A stretch of DNA of 64,000 nt from a virus. Location of the stretch: positions 96,001-160,000 of the IMG/VR virus record IMGVR_UViG_3300045988_161114. One strand, written 5' to 3'. Below, one piece after another: positions 32,990 to 47,588 of this stretch (its first letter is position 1; each line of letters opens with the position of its first letter). Below the pieces are notes generated by a model, which was not told the DNA's origin, ran no database searches, and saw only the letters and a program-made list of their open reading frames with translations. The position numbers were made by a program, and so were the translations under genes.

Positions 32990-33083
32990 TAATATTAGTC
33001 CTGAGTATGACTATAAACTGCTCCTGTATATGGATGTGTATCCATACTGTTGAGTACAAAAGTACGAAACAGCTTTCTTCATG

Positions 33084-33120
33084 GGTTTATAGTACAGCCT
33101 TACTATAAACCTTTATTTTA
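33084..33120 (+). promoter_or_regulatory. 11-bp perfect hairpin + T-rich tail upstream of RNAP-A
   Basis: GGTTTATAGTA cagcct TACTATAAACC, then TTTATTTTAAC. The word ACTATAAAC also occurs at 33010-33018. Confidence 0.45.
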
Positions 33121-33145
33121 ACTTGTCTATAGAAAGGACATTATT

Positions 33146-36100
33146 ATGGCTAACACTATCAACACAATCAACTTCTTTGCTTCTCTTCCTGAAGATCGTC
33201 AAACTGCTATCAAAGAGGTGGCGAATCAACTGGTATCGGCAATTGGAACGGTTGCTACAAATGAACATAGAGATGTTAAAATCTCTGTACACGGCGTAGA
33301 GATTGCGATGCGCATTAAATCTGTATCGCGTAAAGGCAAAGCGTTTGTGACCTTTGTTAAGGGTCGCAATAACGGAGCAGCTCTTCAATTAATGGGCGCC
33401 CTTAAACTTGTAGAGGGTCGCAACTATGCAGTCAATAGGGTTCTTTGCAGTGGTTACGAGTCTTTCGTTAACAAATTCTTTATGTTAAATAAAGAAACCA
33501 CAATTGTTGAGAAGAAAAAAGAAGTTACTTTCCGTAAGGAAATCATCACTTCTGCGGAGGCATTCTTCGGTTTTGTTGTAAAATTGTCTTCCGATTCTAA
33601 AAACAAGATCGAAGATATTCTGGATGCTATGCGTCAACGTCCAGGTCTCAGATATGCGCCCGTATCACATATCATGCCGCGTGCTCAACTTGCCCAATAC
33701 CGCATTCCTGGTTGGGAGATTGAAACTGGTGAACTGGATAGCATGAATTTATCTCCAGACATCAATAGCAAGTTGGCGTCTATTGGTGCATTTAGCCAAG
33801 GCGCAGTTGATTCTATGGCTGCAGTGTTCGACAATGATATGACATACAGCATCAATGATAGCACTAAGTCAATCGCCCGTTTTGGATTGAATCCATCTGA
33901 ACATAAATCAGTATCTATAGGCGTTAAAAAAGTTGCAGTCATTGTAGGTGTCGATATGCCAGAAGGTTACAATCGTCTCAACGATAGCATCTATACTTCT
34001 ATTGTTGGCGGTGCTATACATGCCAACAAAAATGAGTACCTGAAATATGGTGCTGTCCGCGTCATCTCTGAGAACCATGCAAAAGGCGTGGCTGCCTTTA
34101 TTGGTGATGAGTTTGAGGCTGCTGCTAAAGAACTTGGCGTTCAATACATCACAGGCAAATTAAAATCCAAGTCTGTAGGCTTAGGATATAATCTTGTTAG
34201 CAATGGTAAAAGCCTGAAGGAGTTTATCATTGACCTGTACAACGATGCTGAATTCCGGGCTGAGGTAAACAACACTCTGGCTTCTTTTGTTAAAGAGGTT
34301 AAGATTGGCGGGCTTGTTTATAAAGTTATCATTATCAACGAAGAGCTGCATGTAACTTCTTTCTATTCCCTGGAGGGATGGGAATATACTGAGAAGTTCC
34401 TGAACAAGCAAGAGGATATCAAATCTCATGCCTCTATTGATGAGGCTGAGTTTGAATTATTGGGTGTTGAACAAATCGACGAGGATTCTTTATCCGAAGA
34501 GGAAATCGAGACTCTGAATGCTAGCAGCGTTATGAAATTGTTTATTGAAAGCATCAAAACCAACCCTGATTTCAAAGTAGGGGAAGAATTGCTTAATATG
34601 AAACGCGAAGGCCTGATCACTAAGAGCAAGAAAGTGGGCCGTATCTCTCTGTTGACCCTTGATTCTATTAAAGATCAATTTGGCGAAGAAGCCCTGAAGT
34701 CCTTCTTGGAGGCAAACATTGATAACTCATACCTGGTTGAGTCATCTATTATGACCAAAGACCTCTCTCCTCGTATTTATGAAGAGGGTGAAATCAAGTT
34801 CATCTTGAAAGAACTGTTTGATGATAGCATTGCTTATGCGGGTAACGGAACTCTGAAGGCAGGGAACTTTAAGTCTTATGGCAAGGACAAACAAATGATC
34901 TCCAACACGATCGATCGTTTGCTTAATGGTGATTCTTCAATTGGTTGGGTTGGTCTGACCAATACGGGGTTTACTATTGAGTTTGCTGGATACGATTTTG
35001 TGTTCCCAGCATGGGGCAAACTTAAAGGCCAGATCATTCTTCCTAATGAGGATGATTTGAGTGAGGGCCTTATTGGTGGCAAGCTGGTGGGCACTTTGAT
35101 GTCTATCTACCAAATGATCAAGTTCCAAAACAATAAAGGTGCTGTATTGACCTATGCCAAACATATGTTGACCTTAGAGCAACTGTTCTTGGGTAGCCGC
35201 ATTACCAAGATGCGTATGTCTAATAATGCGAACATGATACTGGTTCCACAAACAAAAGATCTGGTAAATGTATACACTACAAACAAGACTGTCCGCAAAG
35301 GTATCCAAGAAGATGGTCAGCTTGGCTATATCAAATACCCAGAATTGATGCTGCAATCATTCAAGTTGGTTAGCGCCAAGTCTGATACACCGTTCTGGAC
35401 ATCTTCTGAAGAATATTCTATTTTTGATATCCTGGAGGAGTCTGTTCTTCGCATTCCTCCAATGCTTGCTTTGTCCAACCAAGACGATTTCGACGGTGAT
35501 AGAGCCACCGTTTTCTTTGCTAAAGGTCTTGATGGTTACGATACCTGGACAACTGAACATACTCTTGGGAAAGATAATCTGATTGGTGCGTATCAGGCTG
35601 CATATGTTGCAGATGAAGAAGAGTCTTTGTTAAAAGGTTTGGATGTTATCAATGATAGCACTATTAAGTGCTATCCTGTTGAGGAGTTCCAAAGTGGTGT
35701 AGAAAAACTGGTTAAAGCTAAGCAGGATACCGGGAAATATACCAATGCCTTGGTTCAATCAATTCCACTGTTCGAAGCCATGACTGCTTTGAAAGACGGT
35801 TTATCTAAAGAAGAGGCACGTATTGCTATTGCCTCTATGGGTGTTGCCGTACAGAACGGTGCAATTTCACAAATGAAGCATGAGAATAGGGGTTATTCAC
35901 TTATCGATATGATGTACCTGTTCTCAGCTTCTGAGCGTAATGCACACGACGACTCTATCTCTTTGGCTGATGCTTGGGAAGAGGCAATTGAGTCTACAGT
36001 CGGCAACAAGGAAATGGCACGTCGCATCTCCACAATTATTGCTGAGAAGGCTCCACGTATCATCGAGCACAGCAACATGGTCAAACTTGGCAAAGTATAC

Positions 36101-36496
36101 AGTGAGGGTGAGTACGATTACTACAACCACTTCGGTACAAGAGCTACAGGTCTGGCTTTGTCTCGTATGGGGTTTGGCTCATACATGCAAAACCTTAATG
36201 GTGTGATCTATTCCTCTATTGATGGAACCGAAGAGGAAATCAAAGATTATGTAGATGCTACAATGTCTATTGGTCGTACATTTGATGACTTCTTCAAAGT
36301 GGTTGAGTCTCGTGGTACTAAGCACTCTACTGCTCCCAAAGCCAGCATCTACGGAGCAATAGGTATGTTCTTTGAAGCTGCCGAGAAAGCTGCCAAATCA
36401 TTGAAAGCTATCCAAGCAATCAATGTGTTTGCTGAGCGTGAGGCCTCTTCAACTGTTGAGGAACAAGCTTCAGCCTTGAATGACATGGGCTTCTAA
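33146..36496 (+). CDS. single-chain two-barrel (beta-like + beta'-like) RNA polymerase candidate A (1116 aa)
   Basis: Beta-like GAVRVISENHAKGVAAF (aa ~303-317). Beta'-like IKYPELMLQSF...VLRIPPMLALSNQDDFDGDRATVFF, with the Asp triad at nt 35486-35500. RBS AGAAAGGA. Confidence 0.7.
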   Translation: MANTINTINFFASLPEDRQTAIKEVANQLVSAIGTVATNEHRDVKISVHGVEIAMRIKSVSRKGKAFVTFVKGRNNGAALQLMGALKLVEGRNYAVNRVLCSGYESFVNKFFMLNKETTIVEKKKEVTFRKEIITSAEAFFGFVVKLSSDSKNKIEDILDAMRQRPGLRYAPVSHIMPRAQLAQYRIPGWEIETGELDSMNLSPDINSKLASIGAFSQGAVDSMAAVFDNDMTYSINDSTKSIARFGLNPSEHKSVSIGVKKVAVIVGVDMPEGYNRLNDSIYTSIVGGAIHANKNEYLKYGAVRVISENHAKGVAAFIGDEFEAAAKELGVQYITGKLKSKSVGLGYNLVSNGKSLKEFIIDLYNDAEFRAEVNNTLASFVKEVKIGGLVYKVIIINEELHVTSFYSLEGWEYTEKFLNKQEDIKSHASIDEAEFELLGVEQIDEDSLSEEEIETLNASSVMKLFIESIKTNPDFKVGEELLNMKREGLITKSKKVGRISLLTLDSIKDQFGEEALKSFLEANIDNSYLVESSIMTKDLSPRIYEEGEIKFILKELFDDSIAYAGNGTLKAGNFKSYGKDKQMISNTIDRLLNGDSSIGWVGLTNTGFTIEFAGYDFVFPAWGKLKGQIILPNEDDLSEGLIGGKLVGTLMSIYQMIKFQNNKGAVLTYAKHMLTLEQLFLGSRITKMRMSNNANMILVPQTKDLVNVYTTNKTVRKGIQEDGQLGYIKYPELMLQSFKLVSAKSDTPFWTSSEEYSIFDILEESVLRIPPMLALSNQDDFDGDRATVFFAKGLDGYDTWTTEHTLGKDNLIGAYQAAYVADEEESLLKGLDVINDSTIKCYPVEEFQSGVEKLVKAKQDTGKYTNALVQSIPLFEAMTALKDGLSKEEARIAIASMGVAVQNGAISQMKHENRGYSLIDMMYLFSASERNAHDDSISLADAWEEAIESTVGNKEMARRISTIIAEKAPRIIEHSNMVKLGKVYSEGEYDYYNHFGTRATGLALSRMGFGSYMQNLNGVIYSSIDGTEEEIKDYVDATMSIGRTFDDFFKVVESRGTKHSTAPKASIYGAIGMFFEAAEKAAKSLKAIQAINVFAEREASSTVEEQASALNDMGF

Positions 36497-36521
36497 GACT
36501 CCGTACCAACAAAAGAACAAA

Positions 36522-36580
36522 GACACTACCGCTCCGTTACAAATTACTGTAGCGGAAAAGTAGTGTCGATTCTTTTGTGA
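36522..36580 (+). repeat. hairpin + T-tract cassette copy 1
   Basis: GACACTAC(CCGCT...AGCGG)...GTAGTGTC, then GATTCTTTTGTGA. Starts 26 nt after the RNAP-A stop. Confidence 0.6.
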
Positions 36581-36631
36581 GAACTTACTAAGGTTTCTAG
36601 TGAGATCATTAGTATGTACACTGTTTATTTA

Positions 36632-36683
36632 AAAGTGCCGGCACTCTTAAGGGTGAGTGTCGACACTTTAATGATTATTTTGT
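36632..36683 (+). repeat. hairpin + T-rich cassette copy 2
   Basis: AAAGTGCCGGCACT / AGTGTCGACACTTT (14 bp, 1 mismatch, 1 G-T). 33 nt upstream of ATG 36702. Confidence 0.6.
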
Positions 36684-36701
36684 TAACCCTTGGAGAGTAT
36701 T

Positions 36702-37040
36702 ATGAACTACAACAAATTATTGAAGAAAGACCTTATCGCGTTACTGGTGAAGAAAGAGTCTGAGGTACAGGCTCTGACTAACAAGGTTGAGGAACTGACC
36801 TTGGCTTTACAACGTAATACCGGTGTTATGGAACAACGACCTTTGATTGAATCCAATGCTCGTGAAGAGGTTTTGACGTTCGTTCAGAAACGGGATTTGT
36901 TGTTCCGTTTCCAAAGGGCATTTGGTACCAAGTTGTATGATACTAGAATCAGTACTAATGGTGCTGAATGGCGTAGGAAAGGGGGTACATATGATACTCC
37001 GTGGAATCCTATTACTGAAGATACTTTTACTGGTAGGTAA
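36702..37040 (+). CDS. hypothetical early protein (112 aa)
   Basis: TTGGAG RBS + 6 nt + ATG. The track start 36690 is the TTG of the RBS. Confidence 0.7.
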   Translation: MNYNKLLKKDLIALLVKKESEVQALTNKVEELTLALQRNTGVMEQRPLIESNAREEVLTFVQKRDLLFRFQRAFGTKLYDTRISTNGAEWRRKGGTYDTPWNPITEDTFTGR

Positions 37041-37050
37041 AGCACTAGAG

Positions 37051-37088
37051 ATCGGCGCATTAATATGTGTGTGTCGATTTCTTTTTGA
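37051..37088 (+). repeat. hairpin + T-tract cassette copy 3
   Basis: ATCGGCGC / GTGTCGAT (8 bp, 2 G-T), then TTCTTTTTGA. Confidence 0.65.
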
Positions 37089-37122
37089 GGTTTTATACCT
37101 TGTGTGAGTGTAAGTAACTTTA

Positions 37123-37168
37123 TCGGCACCTTAAGCTTTACGGCTTTCGGTGTCGACTCTTTTTTGAT
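37123..37168 (+). repeat. hairpin + T-tract cassette copy 4
   Basis: TCGGCACC / GGTGTCGA, 18-nt loop, then CTCTTTTTTGAT. 38 nt upstream of ATG 37194. Confidence 0.65.
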
Positions 37169-37193
37169 ATTAACTTTTTTAATGGAGATTGCT

Positions 37194-37394
37194 ATGTTTG
37201 TTCCTCATGTCAACTTTGCCAACACTGAAGTCTTAACAGCATACTTTGAAGAAAATGATCCCTTTGTAGAGATTAAAGAATACCAAGGGTACGTTAAAGC
37301 AGTTGATACCGAAACCGGTGAACGTGCTTTTTGGGTTAAAGGTCTTAATGGATTCTTAACATTCGATAGCAGTAATGCATCTTATTGCTGCTAA
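37194..37394 (+). CDS. hypothetical early protein (66 aa)
   Basis: ATGGAG RBS-like sequence + ATG 37194. The upstream part of the track ORF covers cassettes. Confidence 0.6.
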   Translation: MFVPHVNFANTEVLTAYFEENDPFVEIKEYQGYVKAVDTETGERAFWVKGLNGFLTFDSSNASYCC

Positions 37395-37400
37395 TATTGG

Positions 37401-37437
37401 AATCGGCATCTATTGTAGGTGTCGATTTCTTTTTGAT
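37401..37437 (+). repeat. hairpin + T-tract cassette copy 5
   Basis: AATCGGCATC / GGTGTCGATT (10 bp, 2 G-T), then TCTTTTTGAT. Confidence 0.65.
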
Positions 37438-37473
37438 TATTTTTTTAACTTTTATGGCTATAGGAGGCCCCAA

Positions 37474-37830
37474 ATGAAATACATCCCTACTAAAAACATG
37501 TTCCAAATTTGGAATAACCCTGAAGAACGCAAAAAATTTGAGGACGCAGCACATGATGAAGCTAAAGAAAACTTCATTGCTGAACTCAAAGAAGAGGGCT
37601 ATAAATCTGTTGAAGAGTACAAAGACTACCTGCGCGGATATAGCAGTGCAGATCTGTTCCATGATGTACTCGAATACCGTGAAGAACGGGACAGAGAGGA
37701 TGATTTATCTAACCATCCAGATATCAGCCCGGAACAAAGTTTCCGCCATATGGTTTCATGTTTTGAGCATATCATTAACATCGATATCCATAATGACATC
37801 ATCGAACAGTTAGACAGATTAGGTAAATAA
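37474..37830 (+). CDS. hypothetical early protein (118 aa)
   Basis: AGGAGG RBS 6 nt upstream of ATG 37474. Confidence 0.7.
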   Translation: MKYIPTKNMFQIWNNPEERKKFEDAAHDEAKENFIAELKEEGYKSVEEYKDYLRGYSSADLFHDVLEYREERDREDDLSNHPDISPEQSFRHMVSCFEHIINIDIHNDIIEQLDRLGK

Positions 37831-37840
37831 CAATCTATAA

Positions 37841-37873
37841 GAGTCGGCACATAAAGTGTCGATTCTTTTTTGA
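37841..37873 (+). repeat. hairpin + T-tract cassette copy 6
   Basis: GAGTCGGCAC ataaa GTGTCGATTC, then TTTTTTGA. Confidence 0.7.
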
Positions 37874-37906
37874 GTAAAACCTTTTATACGGAGAAAGGAA
37901 TCCAAA

Positions 37907-38140
37907 ATGTTTGTTGTAGACAAAAAGGACTTTGATGTCCAACTTAAAAACAAAATTCAGGAGTGTATTAATAATCCTGAATTACAAGATATTATGCATG
38001 CAGATAATGGTAATTCTGTTATCTGCGGCTTTGGATACGTACAAGTCATCAATACAGATGGCGATGTATTGTATCAAGTTAATCATACGGGGATGGATGT
38101 GGTAGCTGATATTCGTAAGATTTGCGGTATCACTTACTAA
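37907..38140 (+). CDS. hypothetical early protein (77 aa)
   Basis: GGAGAAAGGA RBS region upstream of the ATG. Confidence 0.7.
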   Translation: MFVVDKKDFDVQLKNKIQECINNPELQDIMHADNGNSVICGFGYVQVINTDGDVLYQVNHTGMDVVADIRKICGITY

Positions 38141-38146
38141 TACAGA

Positions 38147-38180
38147 AGAGTCGGCGCTTTTAGTGTCGATTCTTTTTTGA
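38147..38180 (+). repeat. hairpin + T-tract cassette copy 7
   Basis: AGAGTCGGCGC tttta GTGTCGATTCT (2 G-T), then TTTTTTGA. Confidence 0.7.
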
Positions 38181-38248
38181 AGAAAGTTGTTTTTCATAGG
38201 ATTAGTGTCGACGGGGTCCCTTTTCTCCGCCTGCTCTTCGTAGTGAAA

Positions 38249-38289
38249 GTCGCCACACCTCCCTAGGGCAGTGTCGACTTCTTTTTGAT
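38249..38289 (+). repeat. hairpin + T-tract cassette copy 8
   Basis: GTCG(CC)ACAC / GTGTCGAC, then TTCTTTTTGAT. An orphan TAGTGTCGAC half-site lies at 38203-38212. Confidence 0.6.
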
Positions 38290-38319
38290 TATTAACCATG
38301 TCTTAGAAAGGACAGCACC

Positions 38320-38697
38320 ATGAAAATCATTTTCTCACCTAAAGAAGTATCCGCCGCAAAAGAATTCAAATCTAAATTCTTTAGTCTGATTGAAAAGACC
38401 GCTGAAAAGGTTTGCATTGTAACCGGTAAAGATCCGAAACTGGCTAAGACTAAAGCCAAAGAATTCTTGAATAAGGATATTGTTACAGTATCAAATGAAG
38501 AATCTGGTGCATCTATTGTTGAAGTAGATGAAAAATGGGTTACTGGTTTCATTGATAAATTTGGTGAAACTGTTTATGCTTGGATTGATGTTGGTTTCAA
38601 TGTCATGGTATCCTGTTTACCATTGGCCAATATCGCATTCTTTAAGCAAAAAGAGCTTGGTGAACACATGAAACAGTTGAACAAAAAAGATTACTAA
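38320..38697 (+). CDS. hypothetical early protein (125 aa)
   Basis: AGAAAGGA RBS upstream of the ATG. Confidence 0.7.
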   Translation: MKIIFSPKEVSAAKEFKSKFFSLIEKTAEKVCIVTGKDPKLAKTKAKEFLNKDIVTVSNEESGASIVEVDEKWVTGFIDKFGETVYAWIDVGFNVMVSCLPLANIAFFKQKELGEHMKQLNKKDY

Positions 38698-38705
38698 TTT
38701 GAATC

Positions 38706-38749
38706 ATCGGCACTAGACAAATTAACGTTTAGTGTCGATTTTTTATTGA
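38706..38749 (+). repeat. hairpin + T-tract cassette copy 9
   Basis: ATCGGCACT / AGTGTCGAT, ~16-nt loop, then TTTTTATTGA. Confidence 0.65.
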
Positions 38750-38775
38750 AAGCCATCTAATAGAAAGGAAATGAT

Positions 38776-39711
38776 ATGGCCGACAAAGCAAAAGCTGCGA
38801 GAAAGCAGTTGCATAATATTGCAAACGGTATTAAGAATGCCGCGAAAGGTTATGCTGCTGCTATTGATCAGTCAGTTAAAAAACTCAATGAAGAAAAGGT
38901 TATCGCCGGCTTTATTGAGTACAAAACAGTAGCACACGAATACATTAAAAATGGTGTACTCGATACGGATCCATACGATGTTATGGATGAAACTAAACCC
39001 GAAACCAAACTTGGCAATGTTGCCGATTCAATTTTCACCAATTACAAGGAAGCCATCATGAAAACCGTAAACGCTAAAAACTTCAAATCTCAACAAGTTC
39101 TGGACGCTGAAATGAAAGAAATCAGCAAACTGGACGAATCCGGTGTACTGTTGCTGCACTCTGCTGTTGTGAAAGCCAACAAGGAATATATGGCCAACCA
39201 AAGCGAAGAAAACAAGGTACGTCTGTATGTTGAAGTTCGCAAATACATCCGTGCTGTTGCTCACTTTGGTACTAATGATATTACCGGTATCACTATTGCT
39301 CAAAGCAATATGGAAGCTGTGAATGAGGTTGCTTCTGATATTTTGTCAGAATTGAAGATGAATGTCAGCACTCATGAAGAAGCTGAAGCTATTGTAGAAT
39401 CCGTTAAAGATTCTATTAAGCAAACTCCTGAAGCCGTTAAGAAAGGCTGGACAGGTTCTATTATGGTCGGCCTCACCAAGGTTGGCGGTCTGTTGTGGGA
39501 CTTTGCCAAAGGTGTTGTATGCTATGTTTATAATGGCGCTAAGAAAGTAATTGGTTCCATTATCAAAGTATCTGCGCTGGCATTGTCTTGTATCATCGAT
39601 CTGCTGGACGCCGCTACTACCAAAGACTTTGGTGCTAGTGGTGCCAAAGGCATCATCCGTAAAGGTATGGTTGCCATGACTAATGTCGAAGAAGAAGCTG
39701 TTGCAGCATGA
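38776..39711 (+). CDS. hypothetical early protein with hydrophobic C-terminus (311 aa)
   Basis: AGAAAGGAAA RBS. GC-richer codon usage. C-terminal IMVGLTKVGGLLWDF...SALALSCIIDLL. Confidence 0.75.
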   Translation: MADKAKAARKQLHNIANGIKNAAKGYAAAIDQSVKKLNEEKVIAGFIEYKTVAHEYIKNGVLDTDPYDVMDETKPETKLGNVADSIFTNYKEAIMKTVNAKNFKSQQVLDAEMKEISKLDESGVLLLHSAVVKANKEYMANQSEENKVRLYVEVRKYIRAVAHFGTNDITGITIAQSNMEAVNEVASDILSELKMNVSTHEEAEAIVESVKDSIKQTPEAVKKGWTGSIMVGLTKVGGLLWDFAKGVVCYVYNGAKKVIGSIIKVSALALSCIIDLLDAATTKDFGASGAKGIIRKGMVAMTNVEEEAVAA

Positions 39712-39980
39712 TATATGCAGACGCTTCTGAAGTTGGCAAAGGTGTATTCTTAATTGGATACATCTCTGCTAACAATAGCAAAAGGGCTTATAAGCGCATT
39801 AAAGCAAAAGACAATAATGTTGCAGAAAGAGCCGCAATTGAATTTGCTTTACAGAATAGCGATGGGGAAGTTGTTGCTAGTGACAGTTTAAACAATGTTA
39901 CTGGTATTAATAACCCACAGGTTGTGTTTGTTCCTCGTAGCAATAACTTGGCAGACCTGTACATCAAAAGCTGTAAATAG
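39708..39980 (+). CDS. minimal RNase H-like (DEDD) protein (90 aa)
   Basis: IYADAS...NNVAERAAIEFAL...VASDSLNNV...PRSNNLADLY reproduces the D-E-D-D motif order of RNase H. ATGA overlap with the upstream gene. Confidence 0.5.
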   Translation: MIYADASEVGKGVFLIGYISANNSKRAYKRIKAKDNNVAERAAIEFALQNSDGEVVASDSLNNVTGINNPQVVFVPRSNNLADLYIKSCK

Positions 39981-39985
39981 AAATA

Positions 39986-40027
39986 AAGATCGACACTCCA
40001 TCATAGTGAGTGTCGATTTTTTATTGA
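39986..40027 (+). repeat. hairpin + T-tract cassette copy 10
   Basis: AAGATCGACACTC / GAGTGTCGATTT (5' arm fully complementary, no wobble at the core), then TTTTATTGA. Confidence 0.7.
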
Positions 40028-40093
40028 GGATAATGTTGTCCTCATTAACGGGTATTCGCCCACTTTTATTCTATTTTAAAAAAGGATCTTAAA

Positions 40094-41533
40094 ATGAACC
40101 AACAAGCAAACTTTGAAATCAACCCAGCTCGCATCATCTCTGTTGTACGCAACAACCCTGAAGACTTCCATGAAGTATCCGGTACTGTATACATGCCACG
40201 TCCTGAAAATCGTCGTGTGATTTACAGCATCAACCGCCGCGATACTGATAACGGTCCGGTATTCAGTGTTTACCGTACTCAGAATGTAATGGTGCCTGCG
40301 CCTTACAGCAATACCCGTAATGCCCGTGCTACCGGTTGGGTTATGGCAAATGCCGATGACCATTGGTCTGTAGCACAAAAAGGTGCTGTTGACTTTGTTA
40401 ACACTCCTGTTGGTGACCATAACCACTGGGCAATGGAAACAGCTCTGAAAAGCGATGTTTTCAATGCAATGTCAGTACAAGGTCAATGGACTTATACTTT
40501 TGTATGTCCGTCCGATGCAGTAAAACAGTCAGAGTATGACGTTATCAACCGTAATGCTTTGGCCATTTTGGGTTTGCAGTCTCAAAAAGAAAACCTGTCT
40601 ACAATGAACAGCCAATATGTTCACAATACCGGTGAAATCCGTACTATTGAAAAGGCAATGAATGTTAATGCCATCAATCAGCGTATGGAAGAACTGTACA
40701 AAGAATATTTGGTTCAAGTTGCTAAACTGGTCAAAGAAGAAAAACTGTTTAAAGGTGTAGCGATTTATGCTAACCGCGACACCCTTTTACCGATCGCATT
40801 GCCAGAACTTGGTGCTGGTTACGGTCGTGTTGGTAGCACAGCAAAAGACTTGTGGGAAAACACTTTGTTCCCTGCAAGCCGCGTAATTGCTGGTTTATTT
40901 ATGGTAGGTAAAGCAACAGTCAATATGGCTGATGTTGATCCTTTGCATTCTGACTTCACCTGCGGTATTCAAGTTACCCAAAACAGCGAGACACAATATA
41001 CTCGCCGCATTGTTGAAGTAACTAATCCTCAAGGTAATAAGATTGCAATCCGTACTACTTTGTATGATAACAATCGTGGCAATAGCAATAGCCGTCCTGA
41101 AGCCTTTGAACGTGGTATCACTAGCAATCCTGCTATTATTTACCAAGCCGGTAACCGTGTAACTATGGAAAGCCGTATTCAAGGTCAAGGACAGCCCTGG
41201 GTTACTGTACCGAATATCGTGATTTCCGAATACATCTTCGACCGCGCTGGTAGTGGTGTTGCCGCTCCTGTCGTATCAGAAGACTTCGATATGTTTGCTG
41301 CTCCTGTAGCGACTGTTGAAGAAGTTGAAGAAATCGATATCAACAAGATCGAAACAGTAAGCTCTGAAGCTCCGAAAGAGCAAACAGGTGTACAAGCAGC
41401 ACGTGCACGTCGTTTGGCTCGTGGTACTAAACAGGCTGCTGAAGAAAAAGAATCAACCCAAACAGTTGATGAATTGCTCTCCGGCGCTGATGGTACTGTA
41501 GATCAAGGTGAACAAGAAGAACCTGCTGCTTAA
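40094..41533 (+). CDS. abundant-type early protein with acidic C-terminal tail (479 aa); function unknown
   Basis: AAAAGGA RBS. GC-richer codon usage. The C-terminus is acidic (EEVEEIDINK...GEQEEPAA). Followed by a canonical terminator. Confidence 0.75.
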   Translation: MNQQANFEINPARIISVVRNNPEDFHEVSGTVYMPRPENRRVIYSINRRDTDNGPVFSVYRTQNVMVPAPYSNTRNARATGWVMANADDHWSVAQKGAVDFVNTPVGDHNHWAMETALKSDVFNAMSVQGQWTYTFVCPSDAVKQSEYDVINRNALAILGLQSQKENLSTMNSQYVHNTGEIRTIEKAMNVNAINQRMEELYKEYLVQVAKLVKEEKLFKGVAIYANRDTLLPIALPELGAGYGRVGSTAKDLWENTLFPASRVIAGLFMVGKATVNMADVDPLHSDFTCGIQVTQNSETQYTRRIVEVTNPQGNKIAIRTTLYDNNRGNSNSRPEAFERGITSNPAIIYQAGNRVTMESRIQGQGQPWVTVPNIVISEYIFDRAGSGVAAPVVSEDFDMFAAPVATVEEVEEIDINKIETVSSEAPKEQTGVQAARARRLARGTKQAAEEKESTQTVDELLSGADGTVDQGEQEEPAA

Positions 41534-41548
41534 TGTAGTAAAAGAAAA

Positions 41549-41577
41549 GGTCCCACTTTTAGGAGTGGGATCTTTTT
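41549..41577 (+). terminator. intrinsic terminator
   Basis: GGTCCCACT tttagg AGTGGGATC + TTTTT. Confidence 0.8.
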
Positions 41578-41607
41578 ATGATTAAATTCTTGTTGGAGGT
41601 AATAAAA

Positions 41608-41949
41608 ATGGATATTAAAGATATCAATGTTGGCCAAATCGTTGTAGATAAATTCGGGAATGAATACGAAGTTATCGACACTGATATATCCCAGTGTATT
41701 GCAAAATTGAAATGCACCAAGTTTGTAACAGAAAGTCGTACAGATCCTGTTTTTAAATTTGACAGGCTCGGTAAAGTACTTTGGGTTGGTTCAAATGGTG
41801 TATATCCAGGATATGATGTTACCTCAGATATTCTTATTCAAACGTTAAAATTAAAGGTCGGCAATAAAAATTCGGATAACGAACTTGAAGAGCTTAAAAA
41901 GCGAGTAGAGCGTTTAGAGAAATTAGTTGGCGTAACTAATTTGAGTTAA
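41608..41949 (+). CDS. hypothetical protein (113 aa)
   Basis: TTGGAGG RBS + ATG 41608. C-terminal coiled-coil-like ELEELKKRVERLEKLV. Confidence 0.7.
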   Translation: MDIKDINVGQIVVDKFGNEYEVIDTDISQCIAKLKCTKFVTESRTDPVFKFDRLGKVLWVGSNGVYPGYDVTSDILIQTLKLKVGNKNSDNELEELKKRVERLEKLVGVTNLS

Positions 41950-42085
41950 CAATCATAAAAGAGTATGATTTTATATCATTTCTTATGGCTATTATTGTTA
42001 TACTATCAACAATAGGAATATTGTATATATTAGAGGCGGTAATAACTTTATTATTTAAGTTTCTTTTTTGTGTAGAGGTGTTGAT

Positions 42086-42346
42086 ATGTTTGTATTTGGA
42101 AGTGTTTGGGATTACTTGCTATATAATTCAATTGTAAATAATCCTATCGGATTGTTATACATAATTGGGTTGGTAGTATATACAGCGCTTATAGTAGTTA
42201 ATCTATCCGCCGCCGTTGATAAGATTAAGTGGTTTAAGAAACGACAAAATAGTCAAATCTTTATCACAATACTAATACTAATCTCTATTGTATTAGGACA
42301 TATAGCAACTGTATTAACAGGTAAGCTAATTTCTGTCCTGATATAG
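42086..42346 (+). CDS. two-TM membrane protein (86 aa)
   Basis: GAGGTG RBS + ATG 42086. Two hydrophobic segments. Confidence 0.55.
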   Translation: MFVFGSVWDYLLYNSIVNNPIGLLYIIGLVVYTALIVVNLSAAVDKIKWFKKRQNSQIFITILILISIVLGHIATVLTGKLISVLI

Positions 42347-42349
42347 AAA

Positions 42350-43620
42350 GCAATACAATACGGGGCGAGCGTAAGCGAGCCACTTTACCAATAAAGATTA
42401 CAACAATACAGTGTCTATTATTTTTTGAGCATAAAAGATACTGGCTGCGATTTTATATATCGTTGTATACATATATATAAGTGAATTAAAAGCAATAGAA
42501 GAATAAATAGTATGTTTATATATAAGGTACAATACAGGTATATATAACAGTAATACAATAGATAGATAAATAGCACATGTCCGGCGCGGCATGTGTTGTA
42601 ATAAGTACAGTTATGAATAGTACAGATACGACAAAATTACCGAATACTATAGATAAGTATACGGCGGGCGCTCCTATTTAAAGGATTCGTTAAAAAATTA
42701 AGTTGTTCACTAAGTGTATATACCAATAAATACAATAAGAAATAGTATATTACTAGGGATTATATCAAGCATACTGTATATGCTAATACCCACCGTGACC
42801 ACACGATGTCGCTGGGGACGTAACCTTACAGCTTCACAGCCCAATTCAGGAACCAAGCATTGCTTATATAGTACACTTATTAGATATAAAACGCCGCTAA
42901 TAAGTATAATACCTCTGTAGTGTATAAATAAATATACATTGACAAAGAACCCTTTAAAAAGAATACAACAAGCACTGATGCGATACAGGAAATATAGAAT
43001 AAGAAAAGGGATAAATTCTAATATATGTATGCCTTTCCATGCACTTAAGGAGTTTATAGTCTCTCCAGTAGGACTACTCTCTAACAATATATATAAGTAT
43101 AGTATATATAGTATAAGAATGCAATCCCTTAATTTTAAAATTGTACTGATATCAGTTGTAGATGTAATTATTTTGACATCTAAAGCCACAGAGTGGCTTG
43201 TATTGTATCATCTTTTTGATCGCTGTACCAGGTACATGTATCTTAAACTTCTTTAATTGGTATTTAGTATATAAGGAATACACTAAGTGTATTCAGTATT
43301 AAAAGTATATTTAGAATTTTAAAATATAGATTACATTTCATAGTATTAAATAATTATATAAATTGCTGTAGTGTATTCTTATATATGTATATATGTGTAT
43401 ATGGTATTGTTTTATTGTATTAGGGCTATTTGTTAATAGCCTTTATTGTATTTTTATTTATTTATTCTTATATAGGTGTTTTTTATTATGATTAGTGTAG
43501 ATTTAATTGTTGCTTTATTGTTTTATGTTTGTTCTATTTTTATTGTATATTTTATTTTATGTACAATTGATCAATAGAGAAATAAGTGGCGCGGGTATAT
43601 GTATATATCACTGTAGTGCT
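42350..43620. other. ORF-poor, cassette-free AT-rich block with TATA/GTATA-type low complexity and isolated GC islands; origin or genome-end candidate
   Basis: Only compositionally odd (Y/I/L-rich) ORFs overlapping on both strands. Words ATAAGTATA, TATATATAAG and AATACAATA recur. GC islands: GCGAGCgtaaGCGAGC (42366), CACATGtccGGCGCGGCATGTG (42575), GGCGGGCGC (42663), GGCGCGGG (43589). Confidence 0.35.
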
Positions 43621-43626
43621 TTATTT

Positions 43627-43658
43627 AAATATCGACTTTAGTGTCGATATTTTATTGA
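43627..43658 (+). repeat. hairpin + T-tract cassette copy 11
   Basis: AAATATCGAC tttagt GTCGATATTT, then TATTGA. 33 nt upstream of ATG 43685. Confidence 0.7.
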
Positions 43659-43684
43659 TTTATTTTTATTAGTTTGGAGTAATT

Positions 43685-43807
43685 ATGCCACTATTTATTG
43701 AGTTAGTTCAAATTCTTTTAATTGTTATTGTTCTTTTTTGCATATTTTGTATGATTATCTTGACTTGTATTATTATTAAAAGTTTATATGATATTTATTT
43801 TAAATAA
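43685..43807 (+). CDS. hydrophobic peptide (40 aa)
   Basis: TTTGGAG RBS + 6 nt + ATG, directly after cassette 11. MPLFIELVQILLIVIVLFCIFCMIILTCIIIKSLYDIYFK. Confidence 0.55.
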   Translation: MPLFIELVQILLIVIVLFCIFCMIILTCIIIKSLYDIYFK

Positions 43808-43834
43808 CAAGAATATATTTGAATGGCAATATAT

Positions 43835-43867
43835 AAGGTCGGCACAATAGTGTCGACTTTTTATTGA
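43835..43867 (+). repeat. hairpin + T-tract cassette copy 12
   Basis: AAGGTCGGCAC aata GTGTCGACTTT, then TTATTGA. Confidence 0.7.
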
Positions 43868-43892
43868 TTAAATTTTATCCTGCGGGTCTATT

Positions 43893-43967
43893 ATGATTAA
43901 GTTCATAGAAAATATGACATTGAATCAATACATGAAATTCTATGTCTTCCTTATTTTATTAATCTAA
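43893..43967 (+). CDS. possible 24-aa peptide
   Basis: ATG lies 33 nt after cassette 12, the usual spacing, but there is no clear RBS. MIKFIENMTLNQYMKFYVFLILLI. Confidence 0.25.
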   Translation: MIKFIENMTLNQYMKFYVFLILLI

Positions 43968-43980
43968 GAAAGGGTTAATT

Positions 43981-44094
43981 ATGGGACTTGAAACAGCTAT
44001 TACAGTATACATGTCTGTACTGTTTGTCATCATGTTTTTAGGATGGTTAGCATTTACTGTCCTGGAAGGTTTTTTATTACAAAAGAAAGGATAA
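43981..44094 (+). CDS. hydrophobic peptide (37 aa)
   Basis: GAAAGGG RBS. MGLETAITVYMSVLFVIMFLGWLAFTVLEGFLLQKKG. Confidence 0.5.
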   Translation: MGLETAITVYMSVLFVIMFLGWLAFTVLEGFLLQKKG

Positions 44095-44097
44095 GTC

Positions 44098-44460
44098 ATG
44101 ATTGGGCTTATTGTATTTGGATCACTAGTGACTAGTGTTGCCATTATTTCTATTTTGGCTAAGGCATCGCCGAAATTATTAAAACGTGTATTGGGATATG
44201 AAGCCTATGTTGATTTAGCATTTTCATTGCTGATTGGTATGGCTTGCGGTTTTTCTGGTACTATGTCCGGTTTCGTAATTGGTGCAGCTACTGGTCTGAT
44301 TTTTGGTGTTACTCTTTTTATTCTTGCGCGGGTTTATGGTTATGCTTGTTATGAAAAGCAGGAAGATGGTACCTATAAATGGGTTGAATATGAACCCAAG
44401 TTCAAGATCTCCAATTGGCTGTCTAAATATACCAATAAAAATATTGGTAAGTTTGCATAA
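44098..44460 (+). CDS. multi-TM membrane protein (120 aa)
   Basis: AAAGGA RBS. Three hydrophobic segments. Confidence 0.7.
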   Translation: MIGLIVFGSLVTSVAIISILAKASPKLLKRVLGYEAYVDLAFSLLIGMACGFSGTMSGFVIGAATGLIFGVTLFILARVYGYACYEKQEDGTYKWVEYEPKFKISNWLSKYTNKNIGKFA

Positions 44461-44523
44461 GGTTTCATCATGACATTTTATCTTTTGTATTTGTTTTTAA
44501 TTTCCATCTTTTAAGGTGAAAGT

Positions 44524-44766
44524 ATGAAAAAGTATTTCATTGGTGCATCAACTATTGCACTTGCTCGTCTGCTTTATAAGAAAGATGGTAATATCTCTCT
44601 TACTAAAGTTTGTGCTATTCTTGGCATTTCTGTTTTTGTTATTTTGTATGCCCCGGGCGTACTTGAATTTTTTGTAACATTAGCAGTATTAGCTGTTTTT
44701 GGCTATGTTGCTTTTGGTATTGTTAAAGCTGTTATGGACGGCAGCTTGTCAAAAATTTCTAAATGA
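44524..44766 (+). CDS. two-TM membrane protein (80 aa)
   Basis: AAGGTGAAAG RBS. Hydrophobic segments CAILGISVFVILYAPGV and LAVLAVFGYVAFGIV. Confidence 0.7.
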   Translation: MKKYFIGASTIALARLLYKKDGNISLTKVCAILGISVFVILYAPGVLEFFVTLAVLAVFGYVAFGIVKAVMDGSLSKISK

Positions 44767-44815
44767 TAATTTCTCATTAATGATATATCATTTATATTTT
44801 GATCTTAAAGTTTTT

Positions 44816-44847
44816 GGAAATCGACCTTAGTGTCGATTTCTTTTTGA
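44816..44847 (+). repeat. hairpin + T-tract cassette copy 13
   Basis: GGAAATCGAC cttagt GTCGATTTC, then TTTTTGA. 39 nt upstream of ATG 44880. Confidence 0.7.
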
Positions 44848-44879
44848 TTATTTTTATTTTAATAGAAAAGGATTTTGTT

Positions 44880-45095
44880 ATGCTTCCATTTGATTATAAA
44901 AAAGCTTTGAGTGGCCGTCATTTATGCAAGCTTAAGAATGGTATGTATGCAATTTTATATGCCGATATAAGCAATGATCCTCGTATTCCTAATGAACATG
45001 AATCCCCTTTATTAGGTATCGTATTTAACCTTGATAAAGTGTCATATCCTCAGCATTGGACTCTTTCAGGTAGATTTAAAGTCAATAGTGATTAA
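44880..45095 (+). CDS. hypothetical protein (71 aa)
   Basis: AAAAGGA RBS + ATG 44880. Ends at a TAA that is in frame with the next ORF. Confidence 0.6.
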   Translation: MLPFDYKKALSGRHLCKLKNGMYAILYADISNDPRIPNEHESPLLGIVFNLDKVSYPQHWTLSGRFKVNSD

Positions 45096-45125
45096 AACAT
45101 TATTGGAATTCTTGACCCCCATGAA

Positions 45126-45329
45126 TTGGACACTGTTGATGCGATCAGAATTTTAAAAGAGGCTTGCAAATCTAAAATGCCGGTACAATGGGATGGCTGT
45201 CTAATTGATAAGCCTCTTACTGTTGAAGAAGTGTATCCTAGTGGAAATTTTAAGCTGTCTTTTGGTAAATGGGTATATAATACCGACGGAAGCGAACTTC
45301 CGAATATTCGTATTGTTCATAAGGAGTAA
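45126..45329 (+). CDS. ORF in frame with the preceding gene; no ATG or RBS (67 codons)
   Basis: Same frame as 44880-45095, separated by a single TAA (45093-45095) plus 10 sense codons. TTG start only. Confidence 0.35.
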   Translation: MDTVDAIRILKEACKSKMPVQWDGCLIDKPLTVEEVYPSGNFKLSFGKWVYNTDGSELPNIRIVHKE

Positions 45330-45331
45330 CT

Positions 45332-45481
45332 ATGGTTGCACGTCCCAATTTAAAAATTCCACTACTGACAGTGCTCTCATTGATTCTGAAAAAGTATCTG
45401 ATGCTGGCGTTAAATCTGATCCTCGTGATGAATCAAATTTTGATAAACCTAAGGACGGTACATTTATTAAGCCTGAAATGA
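45332..45481 (+). CDS. alternative 49-aa hydrophobic ORF
   Basis: Best RBS in the region (AAGGAG + 5 nt + ATG). Its TGA overlaps ATG 45478 (ATGA). It conflicts with the hydrophilic reading of the overlapping frame. Confidence 0.35.
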   Translation: MVARPNLKIPLLTVLSLILKKYLMLALNLILVMNQILINLRTVHLLSLK

Positions 45482-45801
45482 TTGTTGATTTTCATGGCAA
45501 ATATTTTGTTACAGATCGTGGAATACAGGTTTATGTAGATGCCAGATATTGTCATCATAAATGGCGGTATGAAGGCAGCTCTATACAGAAAGGTAAAGAA
45601 AAATTTGACATTTGGGATGTTAATGGATATTCTCCTGATTCTGGTACTATTGTTGGTTTTAGTGATAGCAGCAAATACAATGCAGCGCATTGGGATGTTC
45701 CTAAGCATTGGAAAGAATATACCGATTACCATAAAACTGATTGGGAAGAAATTGGGTTTCTTGAACACAAGAAACGCCAAGAGCGTTACTCCATGAATTG
45801 A
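45478..45801 (+). CDS. hypothetical protein (107 aa core; the frame is open upstream to 45205)
   Basis: MIVDFHGKYFVTDRGIQVYVDARYCHHKWRYEG... The start is ambiguous. Confidence 0.55.
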   Translation: MIVDFHGKYFVTDRGIQVYVDARYCHHKWRYEGSSIQKGKEKFDIWDVNGYSPDSGTIVGFSDSSKYNAAHWDVPKHWKEYTDYHKTDWEEIGFLEHKKRQERYSMN

Positions 45802-45805
45802 TTAT

Positions 45806-45840
45806 AAAAGTTGACACAATAGTGTCAACTTTTTTTTTGG
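45806..45840 (+). repeat. hairpin + T-tract cassette copy 14 (compensatory variant)
   Basis: AAAAGTTGACAC aata GTGTCAACTTTT + TTTTTGG. TCGA is changed to TCAA with a matching TTGA in the 5' arm. Confidence 0.75.
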
Positions 45841-45862
45841 TTAAAATATTTTGGAGTCTATC

Positions 45863-46366
45863 ATGGATTTAATTGAAACTATCAAAGAAATGAATAAAGA
45901 AATGGCTGAAAAGTTTCCTGAAATAAATTATGGAGGCTGCGGTAAATCATCTTTTACTTTGTTTAATCTTCTTTCAAAGATAAAAGGTGTATCAAATGTT
46001 GGCATATCAGTAACTTGGTATAGAGATAATCATGATTGCGGTTATAATAAAATTCGTAAAATAAAAATTACAGACGATAATGTTATGCGCTGTATCGATA
46101 GCCACGATTGGGATCATATTATGGTTAAATTCAAATATAATGGAAAAGTTTATTATGTCGATCCATTAAGAATTGTTCATGTAAAAGATCTCAAATCTAA
46201 TAATTTAAATGCTCATTATGGCACTGTCAATGCTAATAGTATTATATATATTATCCGTAAATCAGGCGTTATTTGGAATTGGATATGGACTTCTGTTAAA
46301 AAAGATAATGAAGCCCGTCTTGTTATGAAAAAGTATTTGAGACCACATTTTAAGAAAGGAAAATAA
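45863..46366 (+). CDS. hypothetical protein (167 aa)
   Basis: TTGGAG RBS + 6 nt + ATG 45863. Confidence 0.7.
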   Translation: MDLIETIKEMNKEMAEKFPEINYGGCGKSSFTLFNLLSKIKGVSNVGISVTWYRDNHDCGYNKIRKIKITDDNVMRCIDSHDWDHIMVKFKYNGKVYYVDPLRIVHVKDLKSNNLNAHYGTVNANSIIYIIRKSGVIWNWIWTSVKKDNEARLVMKKYLRPHFKKGK

Positions 46367-46367
46367 A

Positions 46368-46793
46368 ATGTCACCAGAAAAGTTTAATTTCTTTTATCGG
46401 ACTAATATCAAGTCCTATGAAAGATTTCTATCGACTATCAAGTTGAGCAATAAAATATTTGCTCAGCAAGAAAAAGCTTTGAATAAAGTATACTTTAGTC
46501 CTGCAAACTTTTTATACCCTAAATTATGGTTTAATTATTCTTTAAGTAATGATCTTTACTTTTTGAATAATGGTTTGTATTTTGAATCTCTGAAAATGAT
46601 CGAATATTTTGGAATTAGTGATGATAATCCTATTCCAAAATGTGACTTGAAAGCATTTATGCTTAGTGAGAACATTTCAAAGAATGCTAAAGGACGTATG
46701 CGTCACTTTTATGATATTCTTTGCCGCATTCATAATGAAATTCAAAGATTTAAATCTTTTAAATTTGATTGCTATCCAGAATCCTGGTTCTGA
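46368..46793 (+). CDS. hypothetical protein (141 aa)
   Basis: AAAGGAAAATAAAATG: RBS and start abut the previous stop. Confidence 0.7.
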   Translation: MSPEKFNFFYRTNIKSYERFLSTIKLSNKIFAQQEKALNKVYFSPANFLYPKLWFNYSLSNDLYFLNNGLYFESLKMIEYFGISDDNPIPKCDLKAFMLSENISKNAKGRMRHFYDILCRIHNEIQRFKSFKFDCYPESWF

Positions 46794-46800
46794 TTTAAAA

Positions 46801-46833
46801 ATGTTCGGCACATTAGTGTCGAATATTTTTTGA
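46801..46833 (+). repeat. hairpin + T-tract cassette copy 15
   Basis: ATGTTCGGCAC atta GTGTCGAATAT, then TTTTTGA. Confidence 0.7.
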
Positions 46834-46860
46834 TTAAAATCATTTTATTTGGAGTATGGT

Positions 46861-47172: not shown

Positions 47173-47184
47173 CGGAGACTTTAA

Positions 47185-47520: not shown

Positions 47521-47530
47521 AAGTTAAAAA

Positions 47531-47565: not shown

Positions 47566-47588
47566 TTAAATTTTTTGGAATTTTTATC

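Follow-up and report, generated by a model that had tools for sequence, protein, structure and literature searches.

Can a phage protein of about 1,100 residues that sequence searches connect to no characterized polymerase nevertheless be an RNA polymerase (RNAP)? This question is raised by open reading frame (ORF) A, at positions 33146 to 36496 of a 64,000-nucleotide (nt) stretch of IMG/VR record IMGVR_UViG_3300045988_161114 (positions 96,001 to 160,000 of that record). The whole stretch, hereafter the window, comes from a ~185-kb uncultivated tailed phage of the human gut. Single-subunit RNAPs with two double-psi beta-barrels (DPBBs) are rare, and those characterized are YonO, crAss gp66, and gp64 and gp96 of phage P23-45. 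A preliminary description of the window, made from its letters, had proposed that ORF A is a compact enzyme of this type. Here, we examined that proposal by residue conservation, structure prediction, and motif mapping. Judging from sequence and from a predicted structure, we give a probability of roughly three in four to ORF A being a functional two-barrel RNAP used for phage transcription. The kind of enzyme is known. The A family is new to the databases, annotation, and literature that we searched, with no prior description found there and with the 23-family RNAP alignments of PMC10770324 outside the comparison.

Putative active-site motifs of ORF A and their conservation

The ORF of 1,116 amino acids (aa) is present as claimed, with an ATG start, and the motifs quoted in the preliminary description sit where it had placed them. 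GAVRVISENHAKGVAAF corresponds to residues 302 to 318 (nt 34049 to 34099), IKYPELMLQSF to residues 729 to 739, and VLRIPPMLALSNQDDFDGDRATVFF to residues 767 to 791. The DFDGD loop occupies residues 781 to 785, encoded by nt 35486 to 35500 (GATTTCGACGGTGAT), and both its position and its codons were verified. Escherichia coli beta and beta' together have 2,749 aa, of which the chain makes up ~41%, so the claim that it is less than half their size also holds. Cellular and jumbo-phage beta/beta' share active-site motifs with A, namely K-x8-KGV, an (N)RxPxLH-like motif, and NxDFDGD, followed by a RATVF strand in A versus QMAVH. We take DFDGD-RATVF of A to parallel DFDGD-QMAVH of cellular beta' and IKYPELM to parallel cellular NRAPTLH, and R305-x8-K313 is presumably the parallel of K1065-x8-K1073 in cellular beta.

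Conservation of these residues was followed in two alignments. Alignment A1 holds 12 sequences down to ~26% identity, and the superfamily alignment A4 holds 46 sequences, including the family of ORF B, a second gene of the window; its distant members are 13 to 26% identical to A. In A1, the invariant residues are R305, S308, H311, K313, G314, and V315 in the first barrel; I729, K730, P732, L734, M735, N778, D780, D781, D783, G784, D785, and R786 in the second; and K859, G863, N867, Q903, M910, K911, and H912 beyond it. Because this invariance spans 12 sequences reaching ~26% identity, the motifs are beyond chance. Across A4, R305, K313, K340, P621, P732, and D781 are invariant, and G259, G302, L734, D783, G784, D785, E824, K859, G863, and K911 are at least 90% conserved. 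Every full-length superfamily member keeps DxDGD, in a flavor that marks its subgroup: NQDDxDGDR in the A clade, HSDxDGDL in the B clade, and HQNDxDGD in a third group.

Predicted structure and fold matches

AlphaFold2 (AF2) run on A4 gave a predicted local distance difference test (pLDDT) score of 73.5 and a predicted template modeling (pTM) score of 0.73, with confidence of 80 to 97 in the core, 84 to 97 over residues 220 to 420, and mostly 75 to 92 over residues 690 to 920. The model has a beta-rich module at residues 226 to 336, in which R305 and K313 lie on strands 304 to 308 and 313 to 317 (pLDDT >90). A second beta-rich module spans residues 695 to 790 (strands 695 to 701, 725 to 729, 739 to 745, 767 to 770, and 786 to 790), with the Asp loop between the last two strands. 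It is followed by a 35-residue helix (845 to 879) and then by a helix ending at K911.

A Foldseek search with such a model, a check proposed in the preliminary description, returned two-barrel RNAPs: QDE-1, gp64, beta', and crAss gp66. The best PDB match was QDE-1 (7y7p; E values of 3.8e-4 and 5.3e-4, probability of 0.97 to 0.98, ~1,200 alignment columns, 10 to 11% identity), and next came the Thermus-phage gp64 RNAP (8f72_B; E value of 0.036, probability of 0.92). About 45 of the 47 following matches were chains of beta', Rpb1, vaccinia Rpo147, Pol IV, or crAss gp66 (6vr4); one local match to beta' was 7khi_D (145 columns, root mean square deviation of 4.9, probability of 0.85). In BFVD, the best match was an uncharacterized phage protein, A0A7R7G2L5 (E value of 1.8e-6), the second a protein of phage ME3 (E value of 3.2e-5, probability of 1.0), and the third a "minor tail protein," which recalls the tape-measure-fused RNAP of P23-45. 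Later BFVD matches were RNAP subunits of nudiviruses, baculoviruses (LEF-9), poxviruses, and giant viruses.

Comparison with known two-barrel enzymes

Motifs of A and B were mapped by comparing sequence motifs with the structure-based alignments that supplement PMC10770324. At strand beta4 of the beta-like barrel (DPBB-B), HAKGVAA of A and GLKGVT of B correspond to SAKGMW in QDE-1, AWKGVIV in gp64, and GLKGTVIV in gp96, and the counterpart of the whole R305-K313 motif in beta is K-x-x-(A/S)-x-x-x-x-K-G-V. In the candidate bridge helix, TGKYTNA of A and VGPGTND of B correspond to LGMCTNY in QDE-1 and GVGITAN in gp66. At the N terminus of the candidate trigger loop, SQMKHE of A and NAIKHV of B correspond to VDQSKG in QDE-1 and VDRKRD in gp64. 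The predicted order in A (DPBB-B, connector, beta'-like barrel [DPBB-A], then the candidate bridge helix and trigger loop) agrees with the one known from the single-subunit clade. The motifs KG(V), DxDGD, GxxTN, and the trigger-loop K fit the alignment published for gp96, gp64, QDE-1, gp66, and beta/beta'. Conservation, the AF2 model with its Foldseek matches, and motif mapping support the arrangement first read from the letters, in which a predicted beta-like barrel precedes a beta'-like barrel with the Asp triad in one chain.

QDE-1 (PF05183; PDB 2J7N, 7Y7P) resembles A in being a single chain with DPBB-B before DPBB-A and in having a D-[FY]-D-G-D metal loop, KG on beta4 of DPBB-B, and G-x-x-T-N in the bridge helix, which in A is a candidate one. 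Unlike that family, A is viral rather than eukaryotic and has no PF05183 match, and its basic-residue spacing (8 residues from R305 to K313) is nearer to that of cellular beta than to that of QDE-1. Phages P23-45 and P74-26, like the present phage, combine a single-subunit two-barrel RNAP with two deeply diverged paralogues per genome (PMC10770324; PDB 8F72), and there, too, sequence-conserved terminator motifs go with a phage RNAP, comparable to the hairpins described below. gp96 of P23-45 carries DFDGD, as does A; gp64 is much smaller than A and without sequence similarity to it. Whereas gp96, the virion RNAP, is fused to the tape-measure protein, A and B are neither tail fused nor located in the structural block. 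P23-45 is a thermophilic siphovirus, whereas the present phage is a ~185-kb gut/oral phage whose large terminase (TerL) and structural-gene order are like those of myovirus ME3.

YonO of SPbeta is, like A, a ~100-kDa single-chain phage protein with a DxDGD loop (QFDNDGD in YonO) and no known sigma factor, and it is a DNA-dependent RNAP that transcribes a defined phage gene block (PMC5467207). In hhalign, A4 and YonO were matched with a probability of 0.2%, over the 15-residue Asp loop only. A tblastn search with YonO found 40 phage records (SPbeta-like, Clostridium, Enterocloster, and Thomasclavelia phages), none from the A lineage, and YonO was absent from the top 50 BFVD matches of the A model.

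Bacillus phage 0305phi8-36 encodes gp99 (ABS83659.1), listed as a "YonO-like" single-subunit RNAP by Iyer et al. (PMC7824862). Its lineage is related to ours, with a TerL, portal, and major capsid protein module common to ME3 and the window. Because the TerL of the window lies near that of 0305phi8-36, whose gp99 is annotated as a single-subunit RNAP like the RNA-dependent RNA polymerases (RdRPs) (PMC7824862), A has a precedent in its lineage. gp99 (1,218 aa) heads a long early/replication gene block, and ORF A likewise stands at the head of a block. In hhalign, R-x-P-x-I and DTDGD of gp99 aligned with K-x-P-x-L and DFDGD of A at an E value of 0.11, which is not significant. As a positive control, Pfam RdRP recognized gp99 (E value of 1.2e-18, 67.6 bits), whereas A, B, and ME3 gp152/154 (the B counterpart) were not recognized.

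gp66 of phi14:2, a crAss-like phage (PDB 6VR4), is, like A, a single chain with two barrels, and its bridge helix reads G-x-x-I-T-A-N versus G-K-Y-T-N in the candidate bridge helix of A. gp66 has 2,180 aa, is virion packaged, and lies beside tail genes, whereas A, with 1,116 aa, is encoded opposite to the strand of the structural block; gp66 matched the A model in Foldseek at an E value of only 1.0. CrAss-like phages likewise include abundant human-gut viruses. Multisubunit RNAPs place ~2,750 aa in two subunits, whereas A has its 1,116 aa in one, with no evidence for alpha, omega, or sigma. ORF A has no Rpb1- or Rpb2-type Pfam domain, and both of its predicted barrels lie in a single chain, unlike the separate beta and beta' subunits. 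By profiles and model, A falls within the two-barrel superfamily and within its single-subunit clade, outside the YonO, Pfam RdRP, and crAss gp66 families; it is set apart from the YonO and Pfam RdRP families because the profile comparisons were negative. Comparisons with YonO, Pfam RdRP, and PHROGs all being negative, the earlier statement that no named family could be assigned stands.

Relatives of ORF A in sequence databases

A protein identical to A (P0001) occurs on 184.7-kb human-gut contigs, and a further 48 relatives with 85 to 89% identity occur on human-gut metagenome contigs of ~177 to 186 kb. Seven clusters that are 27 to 30% identical to A (1,136 to 1,296 aa) come from other phage contigs of ~100 to 185 kb, including Human Microbiome Project samples; 24 of these loci are in IMG/VR. 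When 1.84 billion representative proteins were searched exhaustively with the profile, only 39 clusters matched at an E value of ≤1e-3. In the sources examined, all public copies of A relatives are labeled "hypothetical protein."

Searches of annotated collections with ORF A gave no match in Pfam, even at an E value of ≤10, in PHROGs, among PDB sequences (phmmer), or in 50,697 annotated phage records (tblastn). A scan with the A profile of one genome per species for 185,579 bacterial and archaeal species found no relative and hence no prophage or host clue. Twenty-nine distant relatives had no RdRP match in Pfam. Profiles of distant relatives found no RNAP in Pfam, PHROGs, or PDB sequences, where they matched nothing but noise and, for one member, an RNase H fusion, and tblastn with the distant members P0079 and P0091 found no match among the phages.

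The remote paralogue B and phage ME3

The B family conserves R391, K399, R782-x-P784-x-L786, and S839-D-x-D-G-D. The preliminary description had called A and B paralogues. At the profile level this was upheld, with hhalign matching the two families at a probability of 94.8% (E value of 5e-8, 347 columns) over a region that takes in the Asp loop, the candidate bridge helix, and the MKH/IKH motif; at the level of BLASTP it was not, as no similarity between A and B was detectable (best E value of 1.3). The same AGAAAGGACA ribosome-binding context precedes ORF A and ORF B. Together with the hairpin upstream of each gene (Table 1), this shared context suggests that A and B are each an insulated transcription unit, and the hairpin and T-run before ORF A suggest its insulation from the small genes preceding it.

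Acinetobacter phage vB_AbaM_ME3 has a B ortholog in gp152 plus gp154, which are annotated as hypothetical (NC_041884, 222114 to 226849; locus L006, 8052 to 12787). The two parts are split by the endonuclease gene gp153, which may represent an intron or homing-endonuclease insertion in an RNAP gene. B matched gp152/gp154 with 28.5% identity in tblastn (E value of 1e-64), and the B profile matched them with E values of 1e-223 and 5e-88. From its length, the ME3 protein matched by the A model in BFVD is probably gp152. We also considered gp036 (1,603 aa, tail module) as that match and rejected it; it is without DxDGD and gave no match to the hidden Markov model, and gp152 fits better. A scan of ~128 kb of ME3 (nt 1 to 50,000 and 160,001 to 234,900) revealed no A ortholog.

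In a second phage clade, locus L001 carries a 27%-identical A ortholog in an equal position with matching downstream gene order, and locus L009 carries a 45%-identical B ortholog. L009 overlaps L001 collinearly at 75 to 80% nucleotide identity, and the A...B arrangement is therefore kept between both clades. Judged by their sequences, A and B have evidently long been under purifying selection. Immediately after the B ortholog of the second clade come genes for a 669-aa HATPase_c protein and an rIIB-like protein (L009, 13524 to 16272).

Hairpin and U-tract elements downstream of ORF A

The preliminary description had noted that a family of cassettes starts right after the stop codon of ORF A, and the first element indeed lies 67 nt 3' of it, at 36563. 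The elements (Table 1) sit in intergenic gaps, 15 to 80 nt 5' of the next start codon. The version present 3' of the A ortholog in the second clade reads CCGGCGC-loop-GTGTCGGT-nTTTTATGR (L001, 13529 to 22574; L009, 692 to 9951), and one copy lies 50 nt upstream of the B ortholog. Every copy in both clades lies on the sense strand. Covariation is seen in the stems, with T-A in the window replaced by C-G in L001 and with the window copy at 45822 reading TTGACAC/GTGTCAA, and G.U pairs are present in them. RNA folding gave -11.4 kcal/mol for the sense strand versus -6.7 kcal/mol for the antisense strand (n = 28; Wilcoxon P = 7e-5). In the 30.5- to 50-kb region around A, terminator-like sites were enriched (27 observed versus 11 ± 3.6 expected), and sigma70-like promoters were not (77 found versus 75.5 expected). 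The GTGTCG hairpin motif was absent from the ME3 and SPbeta loci.

By these sequence properties, the elements are RNA-level and terminator-like. Because their 3' arm stayed conserved across the clades while the proteins drifted to 27% identity, sequence-specific recognition is suggested. A conserved 26-nt terminator motif linked to the virion RNAP of P23-45 is a precedent, and we hypothesize that A or B reads the elements.

Genome context and neighboring genes

Structural genes, including those for the major head protein, the portal, and the large terminase, lie on the minus strand between 220 and 26164. TerL is closest to that of Acinetobacter jumbo myovirus ME3 (40% identity), then to those of Moorella phage MTATph1 and Bacillus phage 0305phi8-36. 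ME3 and the window also have their structural genes in parallel order. Size, gut/oral origin, and an intein had hinted at the crAss-like "Zeta" group. We rejected that assignment and regard the phage as not crAss-like because TerL is closest to ME3/0305phi8-36 and the structural order follows ME3. Transcription direction switches divergently near 31 kb, and the rightward block has ORF A as its first large gene.

TABLE 1 Coordinates of ORFs A and B, their predicted parts, and nearby elements in the window
Feature	Position (nt)	Strand	Basis or remark
ORF A, 1,116-aa single-chain two-barrel polymerase candidate	33146..36496 (stop included)	+	ORF list; ATG start
Terminator-like hairpin and T-run immediately 5' of ORF A	33083..33112	+	Consensus scan
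Shine-Dalgarno-like GAAAGGA, 7 nt 5' of the ORF A ATG	33132..33138	+	Sequence reading
Predicted beta-like barrel (DPBB-B), residues ~221-340; strands/helices E226-E336, pLDDT 84-97	33806..34165 (approximate boundaries)	+	AF2
Basic active-site motif R305-V-I-S-E-N-H-A-K313-G-V315	34058..34090	+	46-sequence conservation; published structure-based alignment
Predicted beta'-like barrel (DPBB-A), residues ~695-790	35228..35515	+	AF2 strands; covered by A-versus-B hhalign
I729-K-Y-P-E-L-M735, counterpart of beta' N-R-A-P-T-L-H	35330..35350	+	Conservation in A1 and A4
N778-Q-D-D-F-D-G-D-R786 with predicted metal-binding Asp triad D781/D783/D785	35477..35503	+	Conservation; codons
Bridge-helix candidate, 35 residues (845-879), with A858-K859...G863-x-x-T866-N867	35678..35782	+	AF2; conservation
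Trigger-loop N-terminal helix candidate, residues 888-912, ending M910-K911-H912	35807..35881	+	AF2; conservation
About 15 hairpin and U-tract elements, (A/G)TCGGCAC-N4-9-GTGTCGAy-TTCTTTTTTGA	36563..47570	+	Sense strand; gaps between small genes
Terminator-like hairpin 5' of ORF B	51593-51628		
ORF B, 1,128-aa remote paralogue: R391-ITSQTGL-K399-GV, R782-N-P-F-L-W, S839-D-N-D-G-D844	51662..55048	+	

The GC content of ORF A had been given as ~47% from a sampled line, which is wrong for the gene; the whole gene has 42.1% GC, and its GC content at third codon positions (GC3), 41.8%, is the highest in the window (0.368 for the major capsid gene). The value of ~35% given for B agrees with its whole-gene 35.2% (GC3 of 27.3%). 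The high GC3 of ORF A could reflect strong expression or a separate origin. A GC-richer island covers ~33000 to 42000 of the window (39 to 42% GC versus 34.5% for the whole window), and GC3 is also elevated in the ORFs at 38776 to 39711 (0.388) and 40094 to 41533 (0.344); expression-level codon bias or a separate origin could likewise explain the island.

Several other genes can be described. An ORF with an intein/Hint splicing domain (Pfam Intein_splicing, E value of 5e-15) lies at 24776 to 26164 on the minus strand (L001, 2220 to 3548), and an RNase_T-like or DNA-polymerase-exonuclease-like ORF at 22688 to 24361 adjoins it; both are conserved in the second clade. At 29783 to 30909 (minus strand), adjacent proteins of 195 and 180 aa are Gly/Ala rich, with glycine-zipper-like stretches and a GC content at second codon positions of >0.5. 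They may be lysis or membrane proteins, and the equivalent region in the second clade adjoins a phage lysozyme gene (L001, 5953 to 6450). Among the rightward-block genes scanned, the only confidently annotated ones are a DNA-repair-type exonuclease at 58651 to 59970 (plus strand; PHROG 704, E value of 2e-98), which has an N-terminal helix-turn-helix-like segment, and a YadA-like trimeric autotransporter adhesin at 60578 to 62053 (plus strand; L009, 16336 to 18129) with head repeats, a stalk, and a membrane anchor (Pfam E value of 6e-16 for the anchor). The adhesin is conserved 3' of B in the second clade, and its sequence hints at a diderm host and possibly at lysogeny-independent surface remodeling.

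Proposed role and alternatives

We propose that A is a catalytically competent single-subunit enzyme of the clade that contains the QDE-1-type RdRPs, YonO, crAss gp66, and gp64 and gp96 of P23-45. In the N-terminal beta-like barrel, R305, K313, and probably K340 would hold the incoming nucleoside triphosphate and the RNA 3' end, and in the C-terminal beta'-like barrel, D781, D783, and D785 would chelate the catalytic Mg2+. The predicted bridge helix (845 to 879) and the trigger-loop-like helix ending at K911 would complete the active center. A would most likely transcribe part of the phage genome from DNA with no sigma factor; YonO, gp66, gp64, and gp96 are sigma independent (PMC5467207; PMC10770324; bioRxiv 10.1101/2020.03.07.982082). 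Together, A and B could run a temporal transcription program partly or wholly independent of the host RNAP, and the hairpin and U-tract elements over the next 11 kb could be termination and/or reinitiation signals for a phage polymerase. With low confidence, we take A to be a non-virion enzyme, made from a separate transcription unit with which the rightward block opens. This is mildly favored because A lies outside the structural block and because the 0305phi8-36 record has no virion mass-spectrometry note for gp99, unlike for other proteins.

Several results weigh against A being a transcribing RNAP. The structural evidence is one AF2 model, with global TM-scores of 0.2 to 0.26; such values are expected for multidomain proteins with mobile clamps and are still a caveat. 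Only two PDB matches had an E value of <1e-3, AF2 on the shallow 12-sequence alignment gave a pLDDT of 35, and the model termini (residues 1 to 220 and 920 to 1116) are poorly defined. Neither Pfam, PHROGs, and phmmer/hmmsearch against PDB nor hhalign against YonO or gp99 links A to a characterized polymerase. The hairpin elements resemble ordinary intrinsic terminators and could be read by the host RNAP. Finally, QDE-1, the best structural match, also uses RNA and single-stranded DNA (ssDNA) templates, so the fold does not fix the template specificity of A.

This last point leads to an alternative that we consider unlikely, though the strongest of those weighed here: A has the two-barrel fold and acts in a QDE-1-like manner on RNA or ssDNA, making replication primers or double-stranded or antisense RNA for regulation or counterdefense. 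It draws on the structural match itself, on the in vitro behavior of crAss gp66, which transcribed ssDNA far better than double-stranded DNA (dsDNA) (bioRxiv 10.1101/2020.03.07.982082), and on the availability of a second polymerase, B, for genuine transcription; B is the one that ME3 conserves, and A is restricted to gut/oral clades. However, transcription of phage genes is the role of all characterized phage members of the clade, YonO, gp66, gp64, and gp96 (PMC5467207, PMC10770324). No evidence points to RNA templates in a dsDNA phage, and the location of A, heading a gene block with conserved transcription signals along it, suits a transcriptase. Motifs alone fail to separate an RNA from a DNA polymerase, and PolD likewise combines two DPBB barrels with a KG motif and an acidic DGDED loop. 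That A is a two-barrel DNA polymerase like PolD DP2, or another nucleotidyl transferase, is nevertheless very improbable: RNAP chains dominate the top 50 PDB matches, among which Foldseek returned no PolD chain, and A has candidate bridge-helix and trigger-loop signatures, of a kind that is common to RNAPs and not to PolD, according to PMC10770324. The window also already has a polymerase-exonuclease-like gene (22688 to 24361), and 0305phi8-36, a related phage, has genes for the alpha and beta subunits of Pol III.

We give just as little credence to A being no enzyme at all, with motifs that are chance matches or relics in a structural or noncatalytic protein. The lack of a curated family match would suit this view, and a GC3 at least at the level of the capsid gene could point to an abundant structural protein. 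Against it, the catalytic-site residues are invariant down to 13 to 26% identity, which would be unexpected for a relic, and loss of the motifs in functional orthologs was not seen. The fold matches are specific to polymerases, and the gene is found away from the structural block and on the other strand. A transcribing RNAP thus remains our preferred reading of A. A bolder extension of it, which we hold as tentative and rather doubtful, is that A and B form a sigma-less two-enzyme system through which these abundant human gut/oral phages of ~185 kb would largely dispense with host RNAP, with one of the two enzymes directly recognizing the GUGUCG-hairpin and U-tract cassette as a sequence-specific terminator and/or reinitiation signal.

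Implications

Two-barrel single-subunit enzymes model the ancestor of all cellular RNAPs and of the eukaryotic RNA interference polymerases, and the A family adds to them a compact (~1,100-aa) branch that is invisible to sequence searches. ORFs A and B can now be annotated, and a small sigma-independent RNAP could serve as a tool. For the B-type enzyme, experiments could start from ME3, an Acinetobacter phage in culture, and the hairpin elements are a directly testable candidate family of cis elements. The conserved paralogue pair suggests a division of labor like that of the virion and non-virion RNAP pairs of phiKZ-like phages and P23-45. If the two-enzyme system exists as outlined above, it would bring a new promoter and terminator logic for two-barrel RNAPs, and the A lineage would be a deep branch not sampled before, which could help to reconstruct the single-subunit ancestor of cellular RNAPs.

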